Shown: in pieces, positions 1,284 through 60,100 of the stretch
How positions within the stretch are numbered: position 1 is the first letter of the stretch
Layout: each line of letters starts with the position of its first letter
Source: Octopus vulgaris
Lineage: Eukaryota
Assembly: GCA_951406725.2 (NCBI GenBank)
Contig: OX597829.1
Coordinates: forward strand, 53,382,001-53,446,000
DNA length: 64,000 bases
Direction of reading: 5' to 3'
Translations under genes and position numbers: made by a program
The notes under the pieces: model-generated
Database searches by the model: none
What the model was told of the DNA's origin: nothing
Seen by the model: the letters and a program-made list of their open reading frames with translations, nothing else

Positions 1284-2500
1284 TGTGGATTTTTTGCTGA
1301 TATATATATATATATATATATTTCACTTTTGTATTTGGTTTCCAAGATTCTTGATTTGAATCCATGTGTTGAAACATGCCAATCATAAATGCACATTGGT
1401 TCTGTTTCAGTTCTTTATTTGTCAATTAGTTAACTATTTGACCAATTAACTAATGAATAGTTTGGTCAGTCAATCAACTAGGTTTGTCAAAGTCTTTCCA
1501 TTGCTGTGCACAACCTCATCAATCACTTACCCTCTTTAACTCCCAAGTCTGCTTCAAGTCTGTCTGTCTGCTCCTAGCTACTCGTAGCCATCCATCCCTT
1601 CTGTGTATAAGTTAAGATATATAGGTGTGCATGTATACATGTATGTGTGTATGTATGTGTGTAAAAATGCATTCCCCACTCTACCAGGGGGCACCTTGAC
1701 ATGACTTTTGGCGTTTATTGCCAATGGTGAGAATTTTTCTCAGCAGCAAACAGCAGTGAATTACAGGCCAAATATATTCCAAACATATTTGAACGGACCT
1801 AAATGTTTGTTCACTTACAACCCTGCTTTGTCGTGCCTACTACAACAACATTTTGTTCTAGCCCGGGCCCCGAGTCACACAATCCAGTTATGTTTTGATA
1901 TTGATTTATTATAAGGAAGTAAAAGCTTCCAATCACTTCAGGGTTGTCTCTTTTGTGGTATACAGTGCTGATCATAACCAAGAAGCTAGAAATGTACTCT
2001 CCACCCTACTGGAGGGCACCCTAAAATGACTGTTAGCATTTTTCAACCCTATAGACTGAACCGAGAACTTTCCTCAATGATAAATGACTGTGAATGTGGC
2101 CATTACACAGGTCAAACATGTCCCAAATACACCTTAACTGATTTAAGTATTTGCTTACTCACAACACTGCTTTCATGTGCCTACTACAATGTACTTGTGT
2201 ATGTGTATTACACACACACACACAGACTTGTTACTTGTTTAGATATGCTTGGAGCACATTCAAACCTGTAAGAAGACCATTCACTCTATTTTGTTATGAG
2301 AAAATTTTCTCACTCTAGACAAATAGGAGTAAACACACCAAGTCTGTTCAAAGCACCCTCTAACCAAAGTGAAGGCTGCATGCATTTTGGAGTGGTTATC
2401 TCCTCTTCAGCATCAGATACCAAAAAGAGGAATAATACAAACTGACTAGTCATTGTACTGTGTGTGTGTATTTTTATTTATATATATATGTGTGTGTGTG

Positions 2501-2542
<42 letters not shown>

Positions 2543-2990
2543 GTGACGCATATTTGCCATTTGAATATGGATAACCCCTAAGGGTGGATGCTACTGTAGT
2601 TTGTAGCCCCAGGAAGATATCTCCTCCAGCTGGCTATAGACACACTATCTGTGTCCTCTCAGTATTTGTGAAGGGAAGTCATCCTCCCCGTCTTCAACTC
2701 ATGATACACACGGACTCGAGTTTCAAGGTGTTTACCCATCATCAGCGTGTGACAATCATGGTTGTCGACGAGAAGTCAGCTCCCTTCACAAATACATATA
2801 CTTTTTCCAGTGTCGATTGACACTGATATTAAAAAAGTGAAATCAAACAATGATAAATCTCAGAGCGAGTTATAAACAGTAGCGGTAACACATCGTGACG
2901 CATATTTGCCATTTGAATATGGCTAACCCCTAAGGGTGGATGCTACTGTAGTTTGTAGCCCCAGGAAGATATCTCCTCCATCTGGCTATA
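2543..2990 (-). mobile_element. Retrozyme/Penelope pLTR-like unit: 352-bp period with 96-bp terminal direct repeat and internal hammerhead
   Basis: 2543-2638 is repeated at 2895-2990 with 2 mismatches. (TA)n lies on both sides and a hammerhead core lies inside. Confidence 0.75.
2707..2751 (-). ncRNA. Minimal type I hammerhead ribozyme
   Basis: Minus strand reads CACACG-CUGAUGA-UGGGU(AAAC)ACCUU-GAAA-CUCGA-GUC^-CGUGUG: 6-bp stem I, intact core, palindromic stem III, GUC cleavage triplet. Confidence 0.85.
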
Positions 2991-4319
2991 TATATATATA
3001 TATATATATATCAATTATAGTTTTCTTTTTTGGTGACACATTGCAGACTGATGTGTATATGTGTGTATGTACACACACACATAATCTGTGCAGCTAGATT
3101 ACAAATTCTACAGTTGAGTAAGAGCTCCCTGTAGATTATCATCATTCAGTTTGCTTCCAGTTTAGTGGTTTACTGGTATTACCAGTTATGATAAACAGAG
3201 CAAAAGAGAAATTAGGATAAACACAAGTTGCTATCATTAGTATACATAAGGAACTGATCTATTACATAAAATAGACCTGTGTGTATTTGCTTTTCATGCA
3301 AAAACAGCATTGCGAATTGCTTCCATACATGAGATGCATGAATAATTTGACCTTGGATGATACATGATAGGGTCTTCATTTTATATTCTTATTGAAATAA
3401 ATAATATTGCTTTATATAAGATTAACTTCTTTAAAATGGTTTTTTCAACATCAACTTCCGGTACTGACATGGCAACTACAGCTTGCTAGATGCACACATG
3501 CATGTCTGATGTAGCAGCTGTGACTATCTGTCTGTCTGTCTAAATATCTAGCTATGTGTGTGTGTGTGTTTGCTTTTCATACGAAAACAGCTGCATGAAC
3601 CAGTACCATATTTGGGAGGTGTGTTCCATATCTAGTTTCTCATTGTACTTCCTCTCTTTCTATCTCTTACTCTATCATTCTCTCAACCATTCTGTCTACT
3701 GTTGTAATGATGTCTGATTCCCAAAAAATTATTACAGCTACTTCCATTGTTTACAATCTTCTGTACCAGTGTATTTGTATATCAGTAAATATCCATTGGT
3801 AAATATTTCTTAAAGCACTTGTTCATATAGGTTTTTCCAAGTGCATTCAACATATCTGATCTCCAAACTCGGTGCAAGCCACTTTTTTTGGAAAAGAAAG
3901 GGAGGGAGGGGTCAAAAAATTGTTTCACAGTGAAATATCAGTGGATCCTTTATCGCAAATAGCTGTTATATGGTAGCGGGACGTGCTAGAAATAGCAGCC
4001 AAATCTTTCCTTTTCTGGTGGCAAAGGAGCCATTTTGAAAGTATGCAAAAAAAACCTGGAAAAGAAAAACAAAACTCCATTGGTAGGAAACTCGGAGGTC
4101 ACCACCAGCCCTCCCCCTTGTTCTTTTCTGGAAAAAAATGGCTTACAGTTTGGAGGTCAGATATGTTGAATGCACTTAAAAAATCCTCTACAAAATATTT
4201 ACCTAGAAGGAACGTGTCAAATTGCACTACACACAAAGAGTACTGTGTTAAGGCTATGAGTTTATAACCCCAGTGAAACTGAGTCCCTTTGCTTGTGATA
4301 TATAATTTCTCATATATCC

Positions 4320-4580: not shown

Positions 4581-6041
4581 TTTTTTAATGTAAATGACAG
4601 TTTGAATTTAAAAAAAAAAGACATTTTTAATTAAATAAACTGCATGCTAATTTTTATCTGCTTTTGTTTCTGTATACCACATGGTGGACAACACTTCCCA
4701 AATAGGAATTGCTAACAATGAAGGGATGTCTGTTAGATAACATTTTCAGTATGTTTGATAGTTCCTTAATTTGGACATCTGCAAAATAGTCTGGATGTAA
4801 TAAACTGACTTGACCAAAAATTTTCATGGGTAAAGGATCCTCAAATTAAAATTAACATGAGTGGTGCAATAAATGCCACTTTTTGAACTTCGACTTATGT
4901 ATTTCAACAGGGCAAGTATATGTCTTTTAGGGGGTCAGCAAATTATGCCCTACATCAGTGATTTTACTTGCTTTTATGAAAATGTCTGTAGCAGATTTCT
5001 TGATAATGTTTGTAAGAGTCATTCACCTATCTTTCTGAAATGATGGGAAGCGAAGGAACTGAAGTAGGCAAATATCCGTGTGAATCTGAATTTTTTTTAT
5101 GTGTTAGGAAGACTAAAAGAAATAGGTAAATTGGTAGATTGGTAGATTGAGAGAAAATGAGATAGAATGATAGTTAGGCCTTTCTATAGATTGGTGCCAC
5201 TCCCAACTTTATTTCCTGATAGCTTTCAGAAAAGTGGGGTTTTAACTTTCAGATGTGTTATCAAGGCTATAGCTTTACAATTATATTGATGAAATTAAGT
5301 GTTTGTGTGTGTGTGTGGGGGGGATCTTTTGGAAATTGTCCTTCCCTATCCACAGTTTGTTATCATTAATTTCCATAACTTTAGCACTTTTTAAACTCTG
5401 TTCTTCAGATTTATATGTTTGAAACAGCATTATGTAATCTACACATTTCTGCAAAGTGTCGTTTTTTGAAAGGGAGTTATGAAGAAACAAAGATTTTATA
5501 CAATTCCTGATATTAATTTAATTGTAAAAATGTAATAGGATTTTTTAAAACATTGAATGGGTATGAGGCTCCAGGAAAGTAAAATAGGAATCAAAGGGGT
5601 TCCATAGGGGATAAAAGGGGTTGAGAACCTCTGATCTACACCTTTAAAAATGTAATATTTCATATTAAAAACAAACATGCATTTTTCTTAAGCTTTTTTT
5701 TAAATAAGAAATTTCATCTGTCTGTTTACCAATGTATTGGAATTATGATAAATGACCACCACCACAACTCTGTTTTCGCATAACTTTCTAGTTATGAAGA
5801 AAAAAAAAGAAGTGTTTGTAATCTATTGTTATGACATTTTTTATTTAAAATAAGGTAAACAATAGAAAGAAAAAAAATATTTAAGTTTTCTGCTGAGAAA
5901 TTTTTTGAATGGCTATTTGCATTTTGTTTACTTTGTGTAATAAGTTATCTCTTTTAAAATAAATTTCCTGTTAAAGATGGTATTGAGAAATGCAAACAAT
6001 TTGGCAAGAGAAAATAAAACAGACAACTCTGATGTCATATT

Positions 6042-6046
<5 letters not shown>

Positions 6047-6096
<50 letters not shown>
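6047..6096. repeat. (TA)n microsatellite
   Basis: Uninterrupted dinucleotide run. Confidence 0.9.
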
Positions 6097-6100
<4 letters not shown>

Positions 6101-6298
6101 ATTTGTGAACTGAACTAGAAAATTGTTGGACTTAACAATCATTCAAAAAGTATTTGATTAGTCTCTTAATTTTTAACATCTGTTTCATCTGACCTGATGT
6201 AAGTAATCTTAAATGTATTACTATTCTATGTTGATGGAAATGTTAGCAAATAATCTATGAAGTGTTTTTTATTGTTTTCCTGAATTGCTTATTTTCAG

Positions 6299-6400
6299 GT
6301 TGTGTTTGGTAATTGTGGTGTGATTCAAGGAATTTCATCTGGGAAAGGTTATGTTGAAATGTCTACTATTGATGAAGAAACAATCAAAGATGTTAGAGAG
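6299..6400 (+). CDS. GLYR1: GLYR1/NP60-like dehydrogenase, internal exon A (VVFGNCGVIQGISSGKGYVEMSTIDEETIKDVRE)
   Basis: ttttcag acceptor and gtattg donor, 102 nt, phase 0-0. The translation matches the 'GK.YV.MST.D' segment of GLYR1/3-hydroxyisobutyrate dehydrogenase-family NAD(P)-binding domains. Confidence 0.9.
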
Positions 6401-6576
6401 GTATTGTTACAGTCTAACTTTTTATAATGTTGTGTAGATGTTGTTAGATATATGAAAGGACTTCTACGTTTCTTTTTCATGCTTGTGTTGTTTTTTTTTA
6501 ATCAAGATATTTGGGAATAGCTAGGACAGTTATTTTTATAGTCATTCTCTTCCTACTTGTAATAATTCAACTGTGT

Positions 6577-6794
6577 AGGTGGCGATCTGGTAGAAACGTT
6601 AGAACGCTAGACGAAATGCTTAGCGATATTTCGTCTGTCTTTACTTCCTGAGTTCAAATTCTGCTGAGGTCAACTTTGCCTTTCATCCTATCGGGGACGA
6701 TAAATTAAGTACCAGTTGTGTAATGGGGTCGATGTAATCGACTGACCCCCCCCCTCTCCTGAAAATTTAAGGCCTTGTGCCAAGAGTAGAAAAG
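6577..6794 (+). mobile_element. tRNA-type SINE, family 1, with TSD
   Basis: B-box-like gagttcaaatt and core gcctttcatcc...gataaattaagtaccag. 16-bp TSD aataatt(c/g)aactgtgt at 6561-6576 and 6795-6810. Confidence 0.85.
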
Positions 6795-7249
6795 AATAAT
6801 TGAACTGTGTTTCAGTTAAAGTCATTTGGATGAACTGAATGAAACAAGAAGAGAAATATTTCATCTTTTACCTGTTTCAGTCGTTAGACCATAGCTTTGC
6901 TGGGATTCCTCTTTGACATCTTTAGTTGAACAAATGAACCTCAATGTTTATTCTTTTTAAAGTTTGGTATTTATGTTTTTGGACTCTTTTGCTAAACTGT
7001 GAAGTTATAAGGGATGCAAAATATTAAAAAAAAAAAAAAAAAAAAGGGCATTGGTCAGCCCAGGGCTGCAGCAGAAGATACTTTTCCATGGTGCGACACT
7101 ATGGTTGCAAAATGAACTTTTTGACCATGCAAGAAAAGTACATAAATTGAAATTAGCTTTGTTTGATTTAAAAGAAAATTATGAATTCAGAGTAGATTTC
7201 CACATTAGCAATGGATTCATATCTCAGTAAAATAATCCATTCATTTGAA

Positions 7250-7500
7250 TCATCATCATCATTGTTTGACATCCGTTGGCATGAGTTGGACAGTTTGGCA
7301 AGAGCTGGCAAACTGGAGAGATGCACTGGGCTCCCAATTGTCTGCTCTGGCATGATTTCTACAGTGGGATGTCCTTCCTAATGCCAGCCACTTCACATTG
7401 TGTACTAGGTGCTTTCCATGTGATGTCAGCAGGGATGCTTTGTATGTGACACCAGTACCTGTGGGGTTGCCAGGTAGCTTGCAAGACACAGACATCTCAG
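7250..7500 (-). mobile_element. RTE 3'-end-derived repeat with (CAT)n tail, decayed
   Basis: (CAT)n followed by the family motif ggatgtccttcctaatgcc. Confidence 0.7.
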
Positions 7501-7767
7501 CTGAGAATATGGATTTAATATTGAGTTGTATGATTTATATGAAGTACCAAAGTGATGGAGTTTTCACTGAAACTTAATTGCATTAAGAAACTCAGTTTGT
7601 GTTAGAGGGATGCAGAACACTAGAATATTATTCACTTTTGCAATCTTATTTTGTACAAGAATTTCATATTTCCTCTGAATAAACAATGTATATTTTCCTA
7701 ATTAAACCCAATCTTTAGAAAACGTCTTTTTAATATCTGTTCTTAATTTTCTGTATTTGCTTCACAG

Positions 7768-17149: not shown

Positions 17150-17616
17150 TGATGGGCACAAGCACCATACGAGTGCGATTGTTGCCAGCCTCACCTTACT
17201 GGCACTTGTGCCCCGTGCTAGTAGGGTGCTAAGAGTACCATCTGAGCGTGATCGTTGCCAGAGCGGCTAACTGGCTTCCGTGCCGGTGGCATGTAGGAGG
17301 CACCATTTGAGCGGGATCATTACCAGCATGCCTTACTGGCACCTGTGCCGTTAGCATGTATAAAAAAATTTTTTAAATAAAAATTCGAGCAAGGTCGTTG
17401 CTAGTACCGCCTGACTGGCCCCCGTGCCGGTGGCATGTAAAAGCACCCACTACACTCTTGGAGTGGTTGGCGTTAGGAAGGGCATCTAGCTGTGGAAACT
17501 CTGCCAGATCAGGACTGGAGCTTGGTGCAGCCATCTGGTTCACCAGACCTCAGTCAAACCGTCTAACCCATGCTAGCATAGAAAACGGGCGTTAAACGAC
17601 GATGATGAGGATGATT
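17150..17616 (+). mobile_element. RTE 3' UTR fragment with (GAT)n-like tail
   Basis: Reverse complement of the 18362/18970 family, including the internal tandem gtgccggtggcatgtaaaagcacc units. Confidence 0.8.
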
Positions 17617-18361: not shown

Positions 18362-18884
18362 TCATCATCATCATCATCATCATCATCACCGTTTAACGTC
18401 CGTTCTCCATGCTAGCATGGGTTGGACGGTTCGACTGGGGATCTGGGAAGCCAGAAGGCTGCACCAAGCTCCGGTCTTATCTGGCAATGTTTCTACAGCT
18501 GGATGCCCTTCCTAACGCCAACCACTCCGTGAGTGTAGTGGGTGCTTTTTACGTGCCACCTGCACAGGTGCCAGGCGAGGCTGGCAACGGCCACGGTCGG
18601 ATTGGTGTATTTTATGTGCCACCGGCACGGAAGCCAGTCGAGGCGGTACTGGCATCGGCCACGAGTCGGATAGTGCTTTTTACATACCACCAGACCAGGG
18701 ATCCTGGCTGGTTCAATTCGATTTCAATTTCGCTTGCCCCAACATGTCTTCGTAAGCAAAGGGGGTTGGCATGGGTGCCTGTCGTCGGATGAGGTTCTAT
18801 ATCGACTTCGCTTGCCTCAACAGGTCTTTGTGTCCAAGGGAGGAAAGGCATTCATAAGTGGGCTGGGCTCACTTGTCCTGCCTG
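18362..18884 (-). mobile_element. 5'-truncated RTE LINE, 3' UTR only
   Basis: (CAT)n tail; nearly identical to 18970-19495. Confidence 0.85.
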
Positions 18885-18969: not shown

Positions 18970-20872
18970 TATCATCATCATCATCGTTTAACGTCCGTTC
19001 TCCATGCTAGCATGGGTTGGACGGTTCGACCGGGGATCTGGGAAGCCAGAAGGCTGCACCAGGCTCCAGTCTTATCTGGAAATGTTTCTACAGCTGGATG
19101 CCCTTCCTAACGCCAACCACTCCGTGGGTGCTTTTTACGTGTCACCTGCACAGGTGCCAGGCGAGGCTGGCAACAGCCACGGTCGGATTGGTGCATTTTA
19201 CATGCCACCGGCACGGAAGCCAGTCGAGGCGGCGCTGGCATCGGCCACGATTTGGATAGTGCTTTTTACGTACCACCAGTCCAGGGGTCCTGGCATCTTC
19301 CGGGTGCCAGTCATAGGATTGGTTCAATTTCGATTTCGATTTCACTTGCCCCAACGGGTCTTCGCAAGCAAAGGTTGGCATGGGTGCCTGTCGTCGGATG
19401 AGGTTCTATATCGACTTCGCTTGCCTCAACAAGTTTTTGTGTGTCCAAGGGAGGAAAGGCATGCATAAGTGGGCTGGACTCACTTGTCCTGCCTGGTCTT
19501 CTCATGCACAGCATATTTCCAAAGGTCCCGGTCGCTGGTCATTTCCTCAGTGAGGCCTAAAGTTCGAAGGTCGTGCTTCACCACCTCGTCCCAGGTTTTC
19601 CTGGGTCTACCTCTTCCACGGGTTCCCTCAACTGCAAGGGATTGGCACTTTTTCACACACCTATCTTCATCCATCTCGCCACATGACCATACCAGCGCAA
19701 TCGTCTCTCTTGCACACCACAACTGATGCTTCTTAGGTACAACATTTCTCTCAAGGTACTAACGCTCTGTCGAGTATGCACACTGACATTACACATCCAT
19801 CGGAGCATACTGGCTTCATTCCTCGCGAGCTTACGCATGTCCTCAGCAGTCACAGCCCATGTTTCACTGCCATGTAGCATGGCTGTTCGAACACATGCAT
19901 CATACAGTCTGCCCTTTACTCTGAGCGAGAGGCCTTTAGTCACCAGCAGAGGTAAGAGCTCCCTAAACTTTGCCCAGGCTATTCTTATTCTAGCAGTTAC
20001 ACTCTCAGCGCACCCACCCCCACTACTGACTTGGTCACCTAGATAACGGAAGCTATCAACTACTTCTAATTTTTCCCCCTGGAAAGTGACGGAAGTTGTT
20101 TTCTGCAGATTTTCAGAGTTTATTGCTCCTGAGCATCTGCCACATACAAAAACTATCTTCCCAGTTAGCCTTCCTTTGACATTGCTGCACCTCTTATGTG
20201 TCCATAGCTTACACTGGGTACATCTTATAGAGTTTCTACCTACACCTTTTCTACAGATCGAGCAGGGCCATCTTCCTGAAGACATTTGTGGATTGTCTAC
20301 CTTCCTACTTATTAGTACTTTGGTTTTAGCTAGGTTGTCTCTAAGGCCCCTCGATTCTAAACCCTCCTTCCACACCTGGAACCTCTCCAGTTCTGATAGT
20401 GACTCAGCATTTAGAGCAAGGTCGTCAGCATAGAGGAGCTCCCAGGGGCAACCTGTCTTGAATTCCTCCATAATTGCCTGGAGGACTATGATAAATAGGA
20501 GGAGGCTGAGTACTGAACCCTGGTGGACCCCAACCTCTACTTTGAATTCTGTGTACATGTTGCCAACCCTAAGCTTACTTACGGCATCCCTGTACATGGC
20601 TTGCACAGCCCTCACCAGCCATTCATCTATCCCTAGTTTCCTCATTGACTACCAGATAAGGGATCGGGGGACCCTGTCAAAGGCTTTCTCCATGTCAACG
20701 AAAGCCAGGTACAGGGGCTTATCTTTGGCTAGGTATTTCTCCTGCAGCTGTCTCACCAGAAATATGGCATCAGTGGTGCTTTTCCCTGGCATGAAACTAA
20801 ACTGCATCTCGTCCAAGTTGACTCTCTCCCTAATCAGTTAGGCTATGACCCTCTCTGTAACCTTCATTACCT
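18970..20872 (-). mobile_element. 5'-truncated RTE-clade LINE, reverse transcriptase pseudogene
   Basis: VDMEKAFDRV, HQGSVLS, LYADD, FRYLG and MLHGSETW motifs. In-frame TAG just upstream of the 330-aa ORF, frameshift near 19670, (CAT)n tail. Confidence 0.93.
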
Positions 20873-28959: not shown

Positions 28960-29844
28960 GTTAGTTAGTTAGTTAATTTGGCTCAAAAGCAAATAGCAAG
29001 GCCATGTAGGGGGACATGGAGTTAGGTACAGGGTGGTGTTCATGCAAAGAGTTCAGGCCACTTGAGGTCAAGGGAGGCTTTGAACAAAGCGGTCGTCGGC
29101 ATCTTCACCATCTCGTCTGGCAGCTTGTTCCACGGATCTGCAACCCGGACGGAGAAAGCTCCTCTCCTTCGATTGAGATGAAATCGTCGCAGGTTGAGCT
29201 TTCATAAGCGGAAAGTCCATGCTGCCAACAAAGCACGCGGAATTCTGTTCTTGATTCGACGGTCATTCGGAATGCTCAGGGCAGCCATATTCCTACCACT
29301 CTATGTCACGCTGGTGAGACCCATATTGGAGTATGGGATTCAAGCCTCTTCCCCTTATCTCCTCAAAGACATACAGCATCTCGAAAGAGTCCAGAAGCTG
29401 GCTACCCGCATGGTTCATGGTCTCAAAAATTTGTCCTACGAAGAAAGGCTGAGGACGCTCGACCTTTATGCTCTTGAAAAACGCCGCCGCCGTGGTGATC
29501 TCATCCTCGCCCACAACATCATAAGCGGAAAGTGTAACCTCTTGAAAGAGCTGTTCTTCACTCCTGCTCCAGAGCGTCGGCTGCGGGGTCATTCCGAAAA
29601 GCTCAACCTGCGACGATTTCATCTCAATCGAAGGAGAGGAGCTTTCTCCGTCCGGGTTGCGGATCCGTGGAACAAGCTTCCAGACGAGATGGTGAAGATG
29701 CCGACGACCGCTTTGTTCAAAGCCTCCCTTGACCTCAAGTGGCCTGAACTCTTTACATGAACACCACCCTGTACTTAACTCCATGTCCCCCTACATGGCC
29801 TTGCTATTTGCTTTTGAGCCAAATTAACTAACTAACTAACTAAC
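28960..29844. mobile_element. Two young CR1/L2-like LINE 3' ends joined head-to-head, (TAAC)n tails facing outward
   Basis: + strand ORF 29194-29760 (VRPILEYG, LERVQKLATRMV, RLRGH, DPWNKLP). 28960-29202 is the reverse complement of 29598-29840. Confidence 0.92.
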
Positions 29845-35771: not shown

Positions 35772-36110
35772 TCATCATCATCATCATCATCGTTTAGAGT
35801 CGGTTTTCCATGCTAGCATGGGTTGGACGGTTCTACTAGGGTCTGTGAAGCCAGAAGGCTTCATCAGGCCCAGTCAGATCTGGCAGTGTTTCTACGGCTG
35901 GATGCCCTTCCTAACGCCAACCACTCCGCGAGTGTAGTGGGTGCTTTTTACGTGCTACCCGCACAGGTGCCAGACAGAGCTGGCAAACGGCCACGAACGG
36001 ATGGTGCTCTTTATGTGCCACCGGCACGAGGGCCAGGCGAGGCTGGCAACGGACACGAACGGATGGTGCTTTTTACGTGCCATCGGCACGAGGTCAGTCG
36101 GGGCGGTGCT
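35772..36110 (-). mobile_element. RTE 3'-end-derived repeat with (CAT)n tail
   Basis: High similarity to 18362-18680, including the internal ~60-bp tandem units. Confidence 0.85.
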
Positions 36111-57157: not shown

Positions 57158-60100
57158 ATTGACAAGACAAATTTAATTTATGTCACAAAACTGCTTAACA
57201 CATAAATTACTGTTTTGAATATTATATACATATAATATACATAAACACATGCTTTTTGCTAACTTGCAATTGTGTTGTATAAGTAGAATAAGTTCTAATT
57301 ACACAATCAAAGCAGTTCCATAATGTAAACATTACCAATACAACATATTTGATGTGTGTTGATTAAATGCCAGAAGCTGTGGTTTTACATCCAGGAAAAA
57401 TTCCTTTAAACAAGTACAGTGTTAACAAAAACACTGATTCAACTAGCTCTGAAGTATATTGTAGTCGTGTCCAAACAAGTAGGCCAAAGAATAAAGAAAT
57501 AGCTGGCATCAATTCTACAGCACTAAAACCCACATGACCTAAACTGACCAGCAGAGGCCCTAATATCAAGAACCTATCTTGATATTTGTATGAAATCCCT
57601 TACTCTTCTGATATCTGATGAGATGGCTCCTTCCTTCTAAGTCGTATGGAGCTGAGATTTATTGTTATTAAAAACAAATATACACACATTTCTATTTTTA
57701 GAATGGTGGATCTTGAAGCACACAAAAAGCTATAAATAATAGGTTGAAAAACCCTTTTGGGCAGAAAAAGTGAAGGGTACTTGTGAGACTCAAACCCACA
57801 TCTCCTGTAAACATGATATCAAATAAATGTATGTGTGTGTGTGTGTATATAAAGTAACAAACTGAGGTAGATATCCTTCAAGAGGTGTGTTAAACATCTA
57901 ATTCACTGGTACATCAGATGAAACCATATAAATATTGGTATAATTGAATAATAAAGATAAATTAAATAGAGAGATACTATTGACAATAATTTATTTATAT
58001 TATAATATTTACACATTATACTATGAACATTATATAATAAACTGTTATTTTTAAAAAACCCATAAAAGGCCAACAAATTATTTCAACTGTATATATTTTC
58101 TGATATATATACACAATAACAGTTTCCTTATATATATGTCACTACAGGGTCATGGTCTAAAGATAGTCGAAATTCCATATTCTGCGTATCATTAAATCAT
58201 GACTGTTATTAACATTGTTCTAGACTATACATATATTGAGTTCTACAACAGGTTTTTAGTCTTGCTCTGCATAAGCAATATATATATATGGACATATATA
58301 ATATAAAATATATAAGGTATATTTGTGTGGTTAAGAAGCTTGTTTCCCAACCATGTGGTCTTGGATTCAGTCCTCGTGTGCAGCACCTTGGGCAAGTGTC
58401 TTCTAGGAAAGACCTGGACCAAACTATGCTTTGTGAGTGAATACAGCAAGCAGAAACTGGAATAAGCCTATTGTAAATATGTGTGCGTGTACCCTTGTCC
58501 TGACACCATGTAATGTTTGTAGAACAAACAGCACTGCAACGCTAACAATGTTGTTTGTTTTCACTTCAATGTCAAGAGAGGACATTCTGTTGTAAAAGAT
58601 CTGCTTCAACAAACTCCACATGATCCATGAATGAGCTTGGGTATCATATACAGCAGTGATTAAATCCAGTCAGGAGTGTTTCATCTAAGTTTTCTACCAA
58701 TAAAATTTTCTCTCAGAATACAAAAGCTAAGGTTGGAAAAGACCTAAGGACAGTGGATGGCACCCACAAGAACATAAAAATAATAATAAGCATCAATGTA
58801 ATACTAATTATTGTAATAATAGGCAGAAGAATAATAAGGAAATAACAGCCCACTTAGGAAGCAACCAAAATTACCTTCTAACTAAAGAAGCAAGTTGTCT
58901 AAGTATCTCTAGCATTTCTCTTGAAAACCCTGGCAAATATCTGAAAAATTCAGAAATTAGACCTTAGTTAGGAATGAGTAAGCAGACCAAACATCAGGTC
59001 AGATGGGGGGGGGGGGGGCATACACCATTGCAGCATTCACTATTTGTTGGTATATTCATGGGTCTTCACGGGTGGCCTGTTGAGGAGAGTCACCATCTCC
59101 ACAAAATACTTCCTCATCTACTGTGACTATGTGATGTGTGGTTAATCAACACAAGTCAGATCCTCAGTGAAGGCAAACAATGTAAGCAGGGCCTAACTTG
59201 GAATCCTGCGCAACATGGACAAACAGCCCAAGTCGGTGCCCCTGAAGCATCCTACTTTGAGTAGAGTCATTGGCTGGATTTCATATCCAACCAATGGTAA
59301 CCATTGGATTACCATTGATAGACCAAACACAATAACTTTAACCATGGGAATAATTGTTGCACGTCATATATCTCTAAGAGAACTAATAAATGTAAAATCA
59401 AACCAATATAAATAACAAAACTAGTAGAACTAGATTATGTAAAAGATGTATCACATGGTTTAATACTCCTTACAGAATTCAGGTTCTTACAAATACCCCA
59501 GGAATTTTCTTTAGGGCATTAGATAAGCATTCCCTCTTTTCTAGCAAGTATAGTAAGATATTCAATAAAAATACTGTGAAATTTATGTATTTCACTACAC
59601 CTAATCTAGGGTATAATATAGCAGCAATCAACAGTAAGAAATTAAATACTATTAGGAATAACAAATGTGCTTTTAATTATTCAGATAGTAAATACCAATC
59701 TGGTTCAAGTACAAATAATACATCATCTCTGTCTAATATAAAAATAATGATGACATTAAGGTGATTTCACCTCCCAGGAATAACATTTACACTAATAAAA
59801 TAAGATCTCTTATGACAACAAACTTAATAGTAATAACTCTCAGAAATGTATAGTTAAAGTTAATAGGAGCAACAGTTCCAAATTCAAAATCAAATTACAA
59901 AACCATATTCACTCTTTTAAATACAAAAGAAAAGAACAAAGCACTTCACTGGCTAAATTCATATGGAATGTCAAGGAGAAAAATAACGACTACTAAGTTT
60001 CATAGTCAATAAGATGTAGTACTTTTCTATACAGAGAAAGTGGTAGTAGTTATAATTTGTAGAGATATTGGAAATTCTCAAATGTAGGTCTAATTTAATT

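Follow-up and report, generated by a model that had tools for sequence, protein, structure and literature searches.

What kind of element is the 352-bp, terminally redundant unit that carries a hammerhead ribozyme motif in this stretch of the Octopus vulgaris genome, and from which form of RNA, and by which enzyme, was it copied? The question goes back to a sequence-only reading of the whole 64,000-nt stretch of DNA (hereafter the window), which proposed a retrozyme produced from a circular RNA and allowed for a pLTR remnant of a Penelope-like element (PLE) instead. We regard the window copy as a truncated 352-nt non-autonomous retrozyme, likely mobilised in trans by a PLE and probably often from circular monomer RNA.

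Repeat unit and hammerhead motif

The unit is defined by a 96-bp direct repeat (2543-2638 and 2895-2990) with a period of 352 bp, the two copies of which differ at two positions (2571/2923 and 2629/2981). It is flanked by (TA)n tracts (2475-2542 and 2987-3011), the longest stop-to-stop frame within it spans 81 aa, and the monomer has a GC content of 42.6%. The sequence-only reading had these properties right, namely a 96-bp repeat at 352 bp amounting to about 1.3 monomers with two mismatches, (TA)n boundaries and no convincing ORF; as for the extent of the insertion, its repeat positions stand, whereas the left limit moves to 2540, an end in AT microhomology. The copy measures 451 nt, or 1.28 monomers, in a single 5′-truncated arm that ends at the site termed S1 and holds one hammerhead, and its 5′ end is joined to the target via a TATA microhomology. 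It carries four private differences in 451 nt, in line with the earlier suggestion of a fairly recent insertion. The features are listed below, with c denoting nucleotides after the predicted hammerhead cut site.

2540..2990, minus strand: whole insertion, starting at monomer position c75 and ending at S1 (c173)
2543..2638, no strand assigned: direct repeat copy 1, at the RNA-sense strand's 3′ end
2895..2990, no strand assigned: direct repeat copy 2, an upstream pass over the same monomer segment with 2 mismatches
2540..2542, minus strand: S1 fixed 3′ end, ...GTCACTAT joined to (AT)n; putative reverse-transcription start
2846..2892, minus strand: internal copy of the S1-S2 'tail', with S1 at 2892 and S2 at 2849/2846
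2662..2795, minus strand: long imperfect rod extending stem I, with compensatory changes between subfamilies
2707..2751, minus strand: type I hammerhead (Rfam RF00163) with stem I, CUGAUGA, U10.1·U11.1, 4-bp stem II, GAAA, palindromic stem III ACUCGAGU and GUC
2712..2713, minus strand: predicted position of self-cleavage, which by hammerhead numbering follows C17 at 2713
2475..2542, no strand assigned: (TA)n target tract, 3′ side
2987..3011, no strand assigned: (TA)n tract, 5′ side, with TATA common to junction and element (microhomology)

On the minus strand, stem I of the hammerhead pairs 2751-2746 with 2712-2707 and is extended by 2760-2755 with 2705-2700, the core is formed by CUGAUGA (2745-2739) and GAAA (2724-2721), and stem II is GGGU/ACCU with an AAAC loop. 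The motif has every core element of a type I hammerhead (CUGANGA, GAAA, UH, three stems and an open stem I), as the earlier reading had recognised from CUGAUGA, GAAA, GUC and the palindromic stem III. The U-U that it noted at the base of stem II is U2738·U2725, a non-pairing combination, inherited in the subfamily, at the 10.1-11.1 position, which is usually G-C. A relaxed type I descriptor matched once in the window, compared with 0.025 matches per shuffled window (200 shuffles). The Infernal scan that had been suggested gave a divided result: the Rfam model Hammerhead_1 aligns to 2707-2751 with 20.4 bits and an E-value of 0.0055 for a search space of 101 nt only, but this lies below the RF00163 gathering score of 34, and a search over 3 kb did not report the match. 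The minimum-energy fold of the window sequence lacks the active core (-5.2 versus -11.8 kcal/mol). The monomer as a whole folds far better than its shuffles (z = -7.7) into a long rod that has the hammerhead at its tip, and the circular folds of four natural units of the family gave z-scores of -7.3, -6.5, -7.0 and -3.5.

Stem III consists of 2 bp and a palindromic loop, a form described in the available passages of PMC4209133 as requiring a dimer. In a hand count over the first 100 of 928 pattern matches, its inner pair was U-A in 61, U·G in 25, C-G in 13 and C·A in 1, which by sequence is a compensatory path via a wobble pair; such a pair would make steric sense in the dimer only. Stem I, stem III and the rod all contain double changes. 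Although the covariation alignments comprise related sequences, partly chosen by the core pattern, and shuffle counts are not probabilities, the stems appear to covary across the family as expected of a type I hammerhead. Judging from this covariation and from the canonical youngest subfamily, the ribozyme motif appears to be under selection across the family.

The core is retained in 41 of 50 unselected hammerheads if U4C, present in 25 of the 50, is allowed. At 10.1-11.1 the same set has U·U (23), C·A (12), A-U (8), C·U (6) and one gapped case, and G10.1-C11.1 in 0/50. Given U4C and the absent G10.1-C11.1, many hammerheads of the family may cleave poorly. U·U at this position is reported to occur in natural hammerheads and to be the mismatch tolerated best there (PMC3088659). 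Speaking against function, a preprint (bioRxiv 10.64898/2026.07.22.740005) reports no cleavage for 8 of 9 retrozyme dimers from Xenopus. The youngest subfamily, with 422 exact matches, has a fully canonical core with G10.1-C11.1 and scores 32.2 bits on RF00163.

Several other repeats lie in the window. Just left of the element is a degenerate 83-bp direct repeat (75%; 1763-1845 and 2107-2189) with a spacing of 344 bp, and further right a MITE-like 44-bp inverted repeat, 89% complementary, has its arms 277 nt apart (3826-3869 and 4147-4190). A common SINE-like repeat in 62-65-bp tandem units occupies 17237-17360, 18542-18691 and 35940-36094, and LINE-like RT fragments, identified by eye, and a weak match to the 960-aa PLE described below are found at 19656-20648 (minus strand), 29182-29757 (plus) and 59450-59647 (plus). 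Rfam microRNA matches in the window arise from (TA)n and were rejected.

A dispersed family and its insertion ends

The proposed check of copy number in the source genome was answered by a dispersed family with thousands of copies. Two first-look searches of the assembly (2.8 Gb in 227 contigs) returned at least 2,767 candidates, the 40 scored ones being 96-100% identical, and at least 3,199 candidates; exact matches to a 32-mer numbered 1,038 and hammerhead-pattern matches 928, with 0 in the controls. Identity to the window copy differs among subfamilies, from about 72% to 99%. The family is built of 352-nt tandem units, each with a type I hammerhead, in arms of head-to-tail monomers that reach 4.8 and 6.0 units, whereas the window copy holds one hammerhead only. 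Its copies have neither ORF nor LTR, their GC content is below 50%, PBS and PPT are judged absent from the missing LTR-type ends, and they are dispersed with target duplications longer than 4 bp. Because no collinear ORF is joined to the copies (168 loci), the family is taken to be non-autonomous, which supports placing the window unit, a retroelement with a hammerhead and no protein of its own, among the non-LTR retrozymes.

Some relatives stand apart. A nine-unit array (L245:1900-5050) resembles a local expansion, possibly a retrozyme becoming a satellite; five rare variants are fixed in it, others are shared in patches, and its flank is not TA. Two near-identical inverted insertions on C1 (L327 and L328), separated by 1 Mb and oppositely oriented, represent either a segmental duplication or an assembly artefact. 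We also observed a sister family with a 365-nt period (2,867 candidates), 61% identical over 264 nt and with the same layout, whose copies (L296:770-1700; L290-L314) have a CCGAUGA core, U·U and ends that lie ~168 and ~225 nt beyond the cut site. Eight metagenome pattern matches were dismissed as chance or unrelated, scoring at most 15.6 bits on our own model compared with 86 for the window.

For the mapping of insertion ends we used all 72 loci behind the first 100 matches of a 32-mer that lies 3′ of the ribozyme, so that copies were sampled independently of the ribozyme and of both ends; segments shorter than 30 nt (ends) or 20 nt (pairs) and duplicate loci were dropped before counting. The 3′ ends fall at two sites 43-46 nt apart: S1, with 58 of 119 segments (≥30 nt) ending at c160-176 (mode c173), and S2, with 51 of 119 ending at c210-224 (c216/219). 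Together these sites account for 109/119 segments, the other 10/119 ending elsewhere, and (AT)4 or longer adjoins 70 of the 109 S1/S2 ends. The 5′ ends, by comparison, are scattered. The circularly permuted start points that had been predicted were thus not found, the 3′ ends being fixed at two Penelope-type sites. The earlier alternative, that copies with fixed ends would be pLTR remnants, was drawn too narrowly: the ends are fixed, yet there is no ORF.

Head-to-head inversions were present at 43 of the 72 loci and comprise 34 S1+S2 pairs, 0 S1+S1, 0 S2+S2 and nine pairs with one unclassed arm, the chance of 34/34 pairs being one-of-each amounting to 0.5^34 = 6e-11. The rule held 66 to 3 in a larger set of mapped loci and in 11/11 classifiable pairs at loci added later. 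Clear target duplications of 11-16 bp were delimited at 11 of 145 loci; they mostly cannot be delimited because most other loci lie in (TA)n. The two fixed 3′ ends, 5′ truncation, head-to-head inversion and AT-rich target are all pLTR-like, and the fixed ends with their inverted S1/S2 pairs are the Penelope 'tail' signature. The strict one-of-each rule would most simply reflect two RT subunits, each priming at its own nick and using its own start site. Whether the template was a circle or a linear multimer, mobilisation of the PLE type is therefore very probable.

RNA template and mobilising enzyme

Of the 109 unselected arms, 51 cross an intact GUC|C and 22 are longer than one monomer. Seven 5′ stops fall at c1-11 (hazard 0.010 compared with a mean of 0.0049), with four other 11-nt intervals equal or higher, so that the mapped segments give no clear signal of a 5′-end pile-up at the cut site; an indel excess at the junction was likewise not seen. 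Judging from the read-through, the lack of a distinct cut-site pile-up and the lack of a junction indel excess, cleaved linear monomers are therefore not the main template, and circles or uncleaved multimers are left.

We then turned to variants shared between the units of an insertion. In the youngest subfamily, counting the 31 loci with three or more units at the site, 51 variants are fixed, occurring in every unit of their insertion, 4 are mixed and 74 are singletons. Positions no more than 3-4 nt from an indel or 4-6 nt from the end of a segment were excluded; the nine-unit array L245 was omitted from the haplotype and in-register counts, and L327 and L328 were both counted, contributing 4 of the 51 fixed variants. 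Several haplotypes, some of them nested, coexist in this subfamily, usually in every unit and on both arms, and one insertion (L318) has two variants that are unique among the sampled insertions and present in 5/5 of its units. Rare alleles are common to units within an insertion in 8 tandem cases (~0.7 expected) and 26 inverted ones (~2.8 expected). Such fixation is expected if a single monomer, probably circular, was copied over and over. Three variants occur in register on both arms (c332 in L247, non-CpG; c165 in L013 and c166 in L237, both CpG); a monomer circle does not predict this, and some events may point to a multimeric template. Contigs of runs presumed to be RNA contain family sequence, without strand, ends or level, and count for neither side. 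On balance, circles probably contribute as templates, and linear multimers as the sole template seem rather doubtful. The earlier claim that the terminal redundancy records rolling reverse transcription of a circle does not stand in that form: the circle is supported by shared variants elsewhere, not by this copy, the redundancy of which does not by itself imply a circle because an uncleaved multimer leaves the same 1.28-mer and arrays of 3-6 units exist.

In the scheme that we favour, arrays with at least two hammerheads would be transcribed, paired hammerheads would cleave via the palindromic stem III and release monomers, and a host ligase would close these into circles. A dimeric PLE RT/GIY-YIG protein might then nick the two strands of a (TA)n target at an offset of ~12 bp, with one RT starting at S1 and the other at S2, each copying upstream across the junction to yield up to six identical units, after which the cDNAs would join head-to-head or to the target via microhomology. 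Uncleaved multimer RNAs are likely to serve as templates as well. Because its single S1 arm holds just one hammerhead, the window copy cannot release a monomer alone.

The strongest competitor is a PLE-mobilised element copied only from uncleaved linear multimers of a few homogeneous arrays, with the hammerhead weak or a passenger and the arrays regenerated by DNA-level tandem duplication or template jumps. Long arrays that could act as sources (6 units per arm, the 9-mer L245), the in-register variants on both arms and the frequent U4C and non-G-C 10.1-11.1 all fit this account, as does the finding that hammerhead cleavage is dispensable for insertion of an Anolis PLE in vitro (PMC11167929). 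It would, however, require many separately homogenised source arrays, given the many coexisting and nested haplotypes that are each fixed over all units, including variants of single insertions. Internal initiation would moreover be expected to shorten a linear array in each generation, no recurrent unit polarity was seen among loci, compensatory changes preserve the palindromic stem III, and the youngest spreading subfamily is canonical. We consider this competitor unlikely compared with copying that often proceeds from circles.

We next consider which PLE could have supplied the enzyme. Three abundant young PLE families of the genome end in (TA)n. The first has a 960-aa ORF and ends ~203 and ~384 nt after its own hammerhead; in one copy (L125:3774-6653, minus strand) the ORF has an asparagine-rich insert between RT and endonuclease, the hammerhead has a very long stem II, and the two 3′ ends lie ~180 nt apart, far beyond the usual 30-40-nt tail. 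The second, which is very young, has an intact 775-aa frame in 4.27-kb tandems and ends at 143 and 189 nt; we observed copies at L162:1137-3461 and 5407-7731 and in L161, among 15,628 candidates. In the third (L264-L278; 16,772 candidates) a minimal hammerhead lies ~100 nt before the (TA)n end, and its first core base is U or A, not C, in the copies inspected. The Atlas groups the 960-aa and 775-aa PLEs with HTH_animal/GIY-YIG/RVT clusters; a Pfam search of the 960-aa ORF returned no family, with weak GIY-YIG matches for two fragments only. Our best guess for the donor is the 775-aa family, because of its 46-nt tail and its hammerhead with U·U at 10.1-11.1, palindromic stem III and U4C variant. 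No DNA similarity was detectable between the monomer and the pLTRs of the three abundant families, or between the monomer and two further PLE copies.

Another possibility is that the copies are plain pLTR remnants, left by an autonomous PLE that was truncated at the 5′ side and has an overlooked ORF. A pLTR likewise has fixed 3′ ends, a tail, inversions and a hammerhead, and same-strand PLE ORF pieces occur near 12 of the 168 loci. These pieces, however, come from different families, lie at varying distances and, where loci were inspected, are separate insertions set off by (TA)n or other DNA; among the 168 loci, no collinear RT and GIY-YIG ORF is joined to a family copy. Units abut head-to-tail at the 352-nt period, up to six times, with nothing between them, and 22/109 unselected arms exceed one monomer. 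The remnant reading is thus largely refuted and highly improbable. Three candidate links to an autonomous element were also discarded: a pair of hammerheads separated by 2.7 kb (L091) reflects local duplication next to an assembly gap and not a pLTR-ORF-pLTR structure, widely spaced copies (L315/L316 and L317) do not match the three PLE proteins, and a loose end in three runs presumed to be RNA has no match in the Octopus vulgaris assembly.

A DNA-amplified satellite or minisatellite, or mobilisation by a LINE or rolling-circle DNA transposon, is equally improbable: the array L245 does resemble a local tandem expansion, but the family has dispersed insertions, two fixed ends, 11-16-bp duplications, 5′ truncation and S1/S2 inverted pairs, and no poly(A) or LINE-like tail.

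The preferred reading, a retrozyme mobilised by a PLE and probably often copied from circles, can be carried further. Tentatively, the family could be a long-lived, viroid-like lineage of 352-nt circular RNA, with the 365-nt family as its sister and no homologous pLTR, that undergoes twin-primed rolling-circle copying by a hijacked dimeric Penelope enzyme, the two RTs starting at S1 and S2 and each making several rounds of the circle, and whose ribozymes are tuned from attenuated (U·U, C·A, U4C) to canonical. If true, this would prove at the genomic level that circRNAs retrotranspose in animals, and it would account for the tail and the inverted structure of PLEs.

Relation to known retrozymes and Penelope-like elements

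Our literature search, the scope of which did not extend to repeat databases or to the supplement of PMC7229834 with its further invertebrate retrozymes, found no octopus or cephalopod retrozyme in the texts available, and neither animal group is mentioned in the main text of PMC7229834 or in PMC5680766, as far as accessible. The closest known systems are the animal non-LTR retrozymes (Cervera & de la Pena 2020, PMC7229834), to which we liken the family by features described in the available passages and not by sequence alignment. Shared features are a canonical type I hammerhead, a short palindromic stem III, a self-paired monomer of ~350 nt, dimers to multimers, thousands of copies, no ORF, a GC content of 43% and duplications longer than 4 bp, and the nearest examples described there are ~350-390-bp Mytilus and 353-nt axolotl repeats. 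Unlike those retrozymes, most octopus subfamilies lack G10.1-C11.1. RNA circles have been demonstrated for the former, whereas the octopus family is known from genomic sequence; conversely, fixed RT starts, S1/S2 pairing and haplotype fixation are mapped in the octopus family and do not appear in those passages. Judged by what sequence can test, the family has every feature of an animal non-LTR retrozyme, and it lacks the ORF expected of a pLTR.

The movement of animal retrozymes is so far a proposal, in which PLEs are called 'strong candidates' and circles would serve as the templates (PMC7229834; bioRxiv 10.64898/2026.07.22.740005). The second of these sources (Li, Clavereau & Pollet), centred on vertebrates and covering 31 vertebrates, 3 insects and 1 anthozoan, describes the same co-occurrence with PLEs and proposes mobilisation by them. 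Its evidence, as presented in the accessible part, is co-distribution and pLTR homology, whereas the octopus link consists of insertion signatures with no homologous pLTR found.

Among PLEs, the best comparison is with the pLTR or 'tail' of endonuclease-bearing elements such as Poseidon of Anolis (PMC11167929, PMC8557442, PMC3846280). Both have two internal RT starts after the hammerhead, a tail on one end, head-to-head inversions and AT-rich or (TA)n targets. Unlike Poseidon-type elements, the octopus family has no ORF, and it has head-to-tail monomers, a 43-46-nt tail and a canonical instead of a minimal hammerhead. The formation of the PLE tail and of the inverted structures is still to be explained (PMC8557442), and the octopus family supplies countable footprints that bear on this process as well as on retrozyme movement. 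It is also a small and defined substrate, with a 352-nt monomer, mapped start sites, a young canonical subfamily and natural ribozyme variants, and the intact candidate PLE proteins of the same genome make it possible to test circle against linear template, and one start per subunit, in vitro. The MRC1-type elements of Chlamys (PMC8557442) are likewise non-autonomous partners of PLEs with multicopy head-to-tail insertions; they generally resemble the 3′ end of the autonomous element and belong to a clade mostly without canonical hammerheads.
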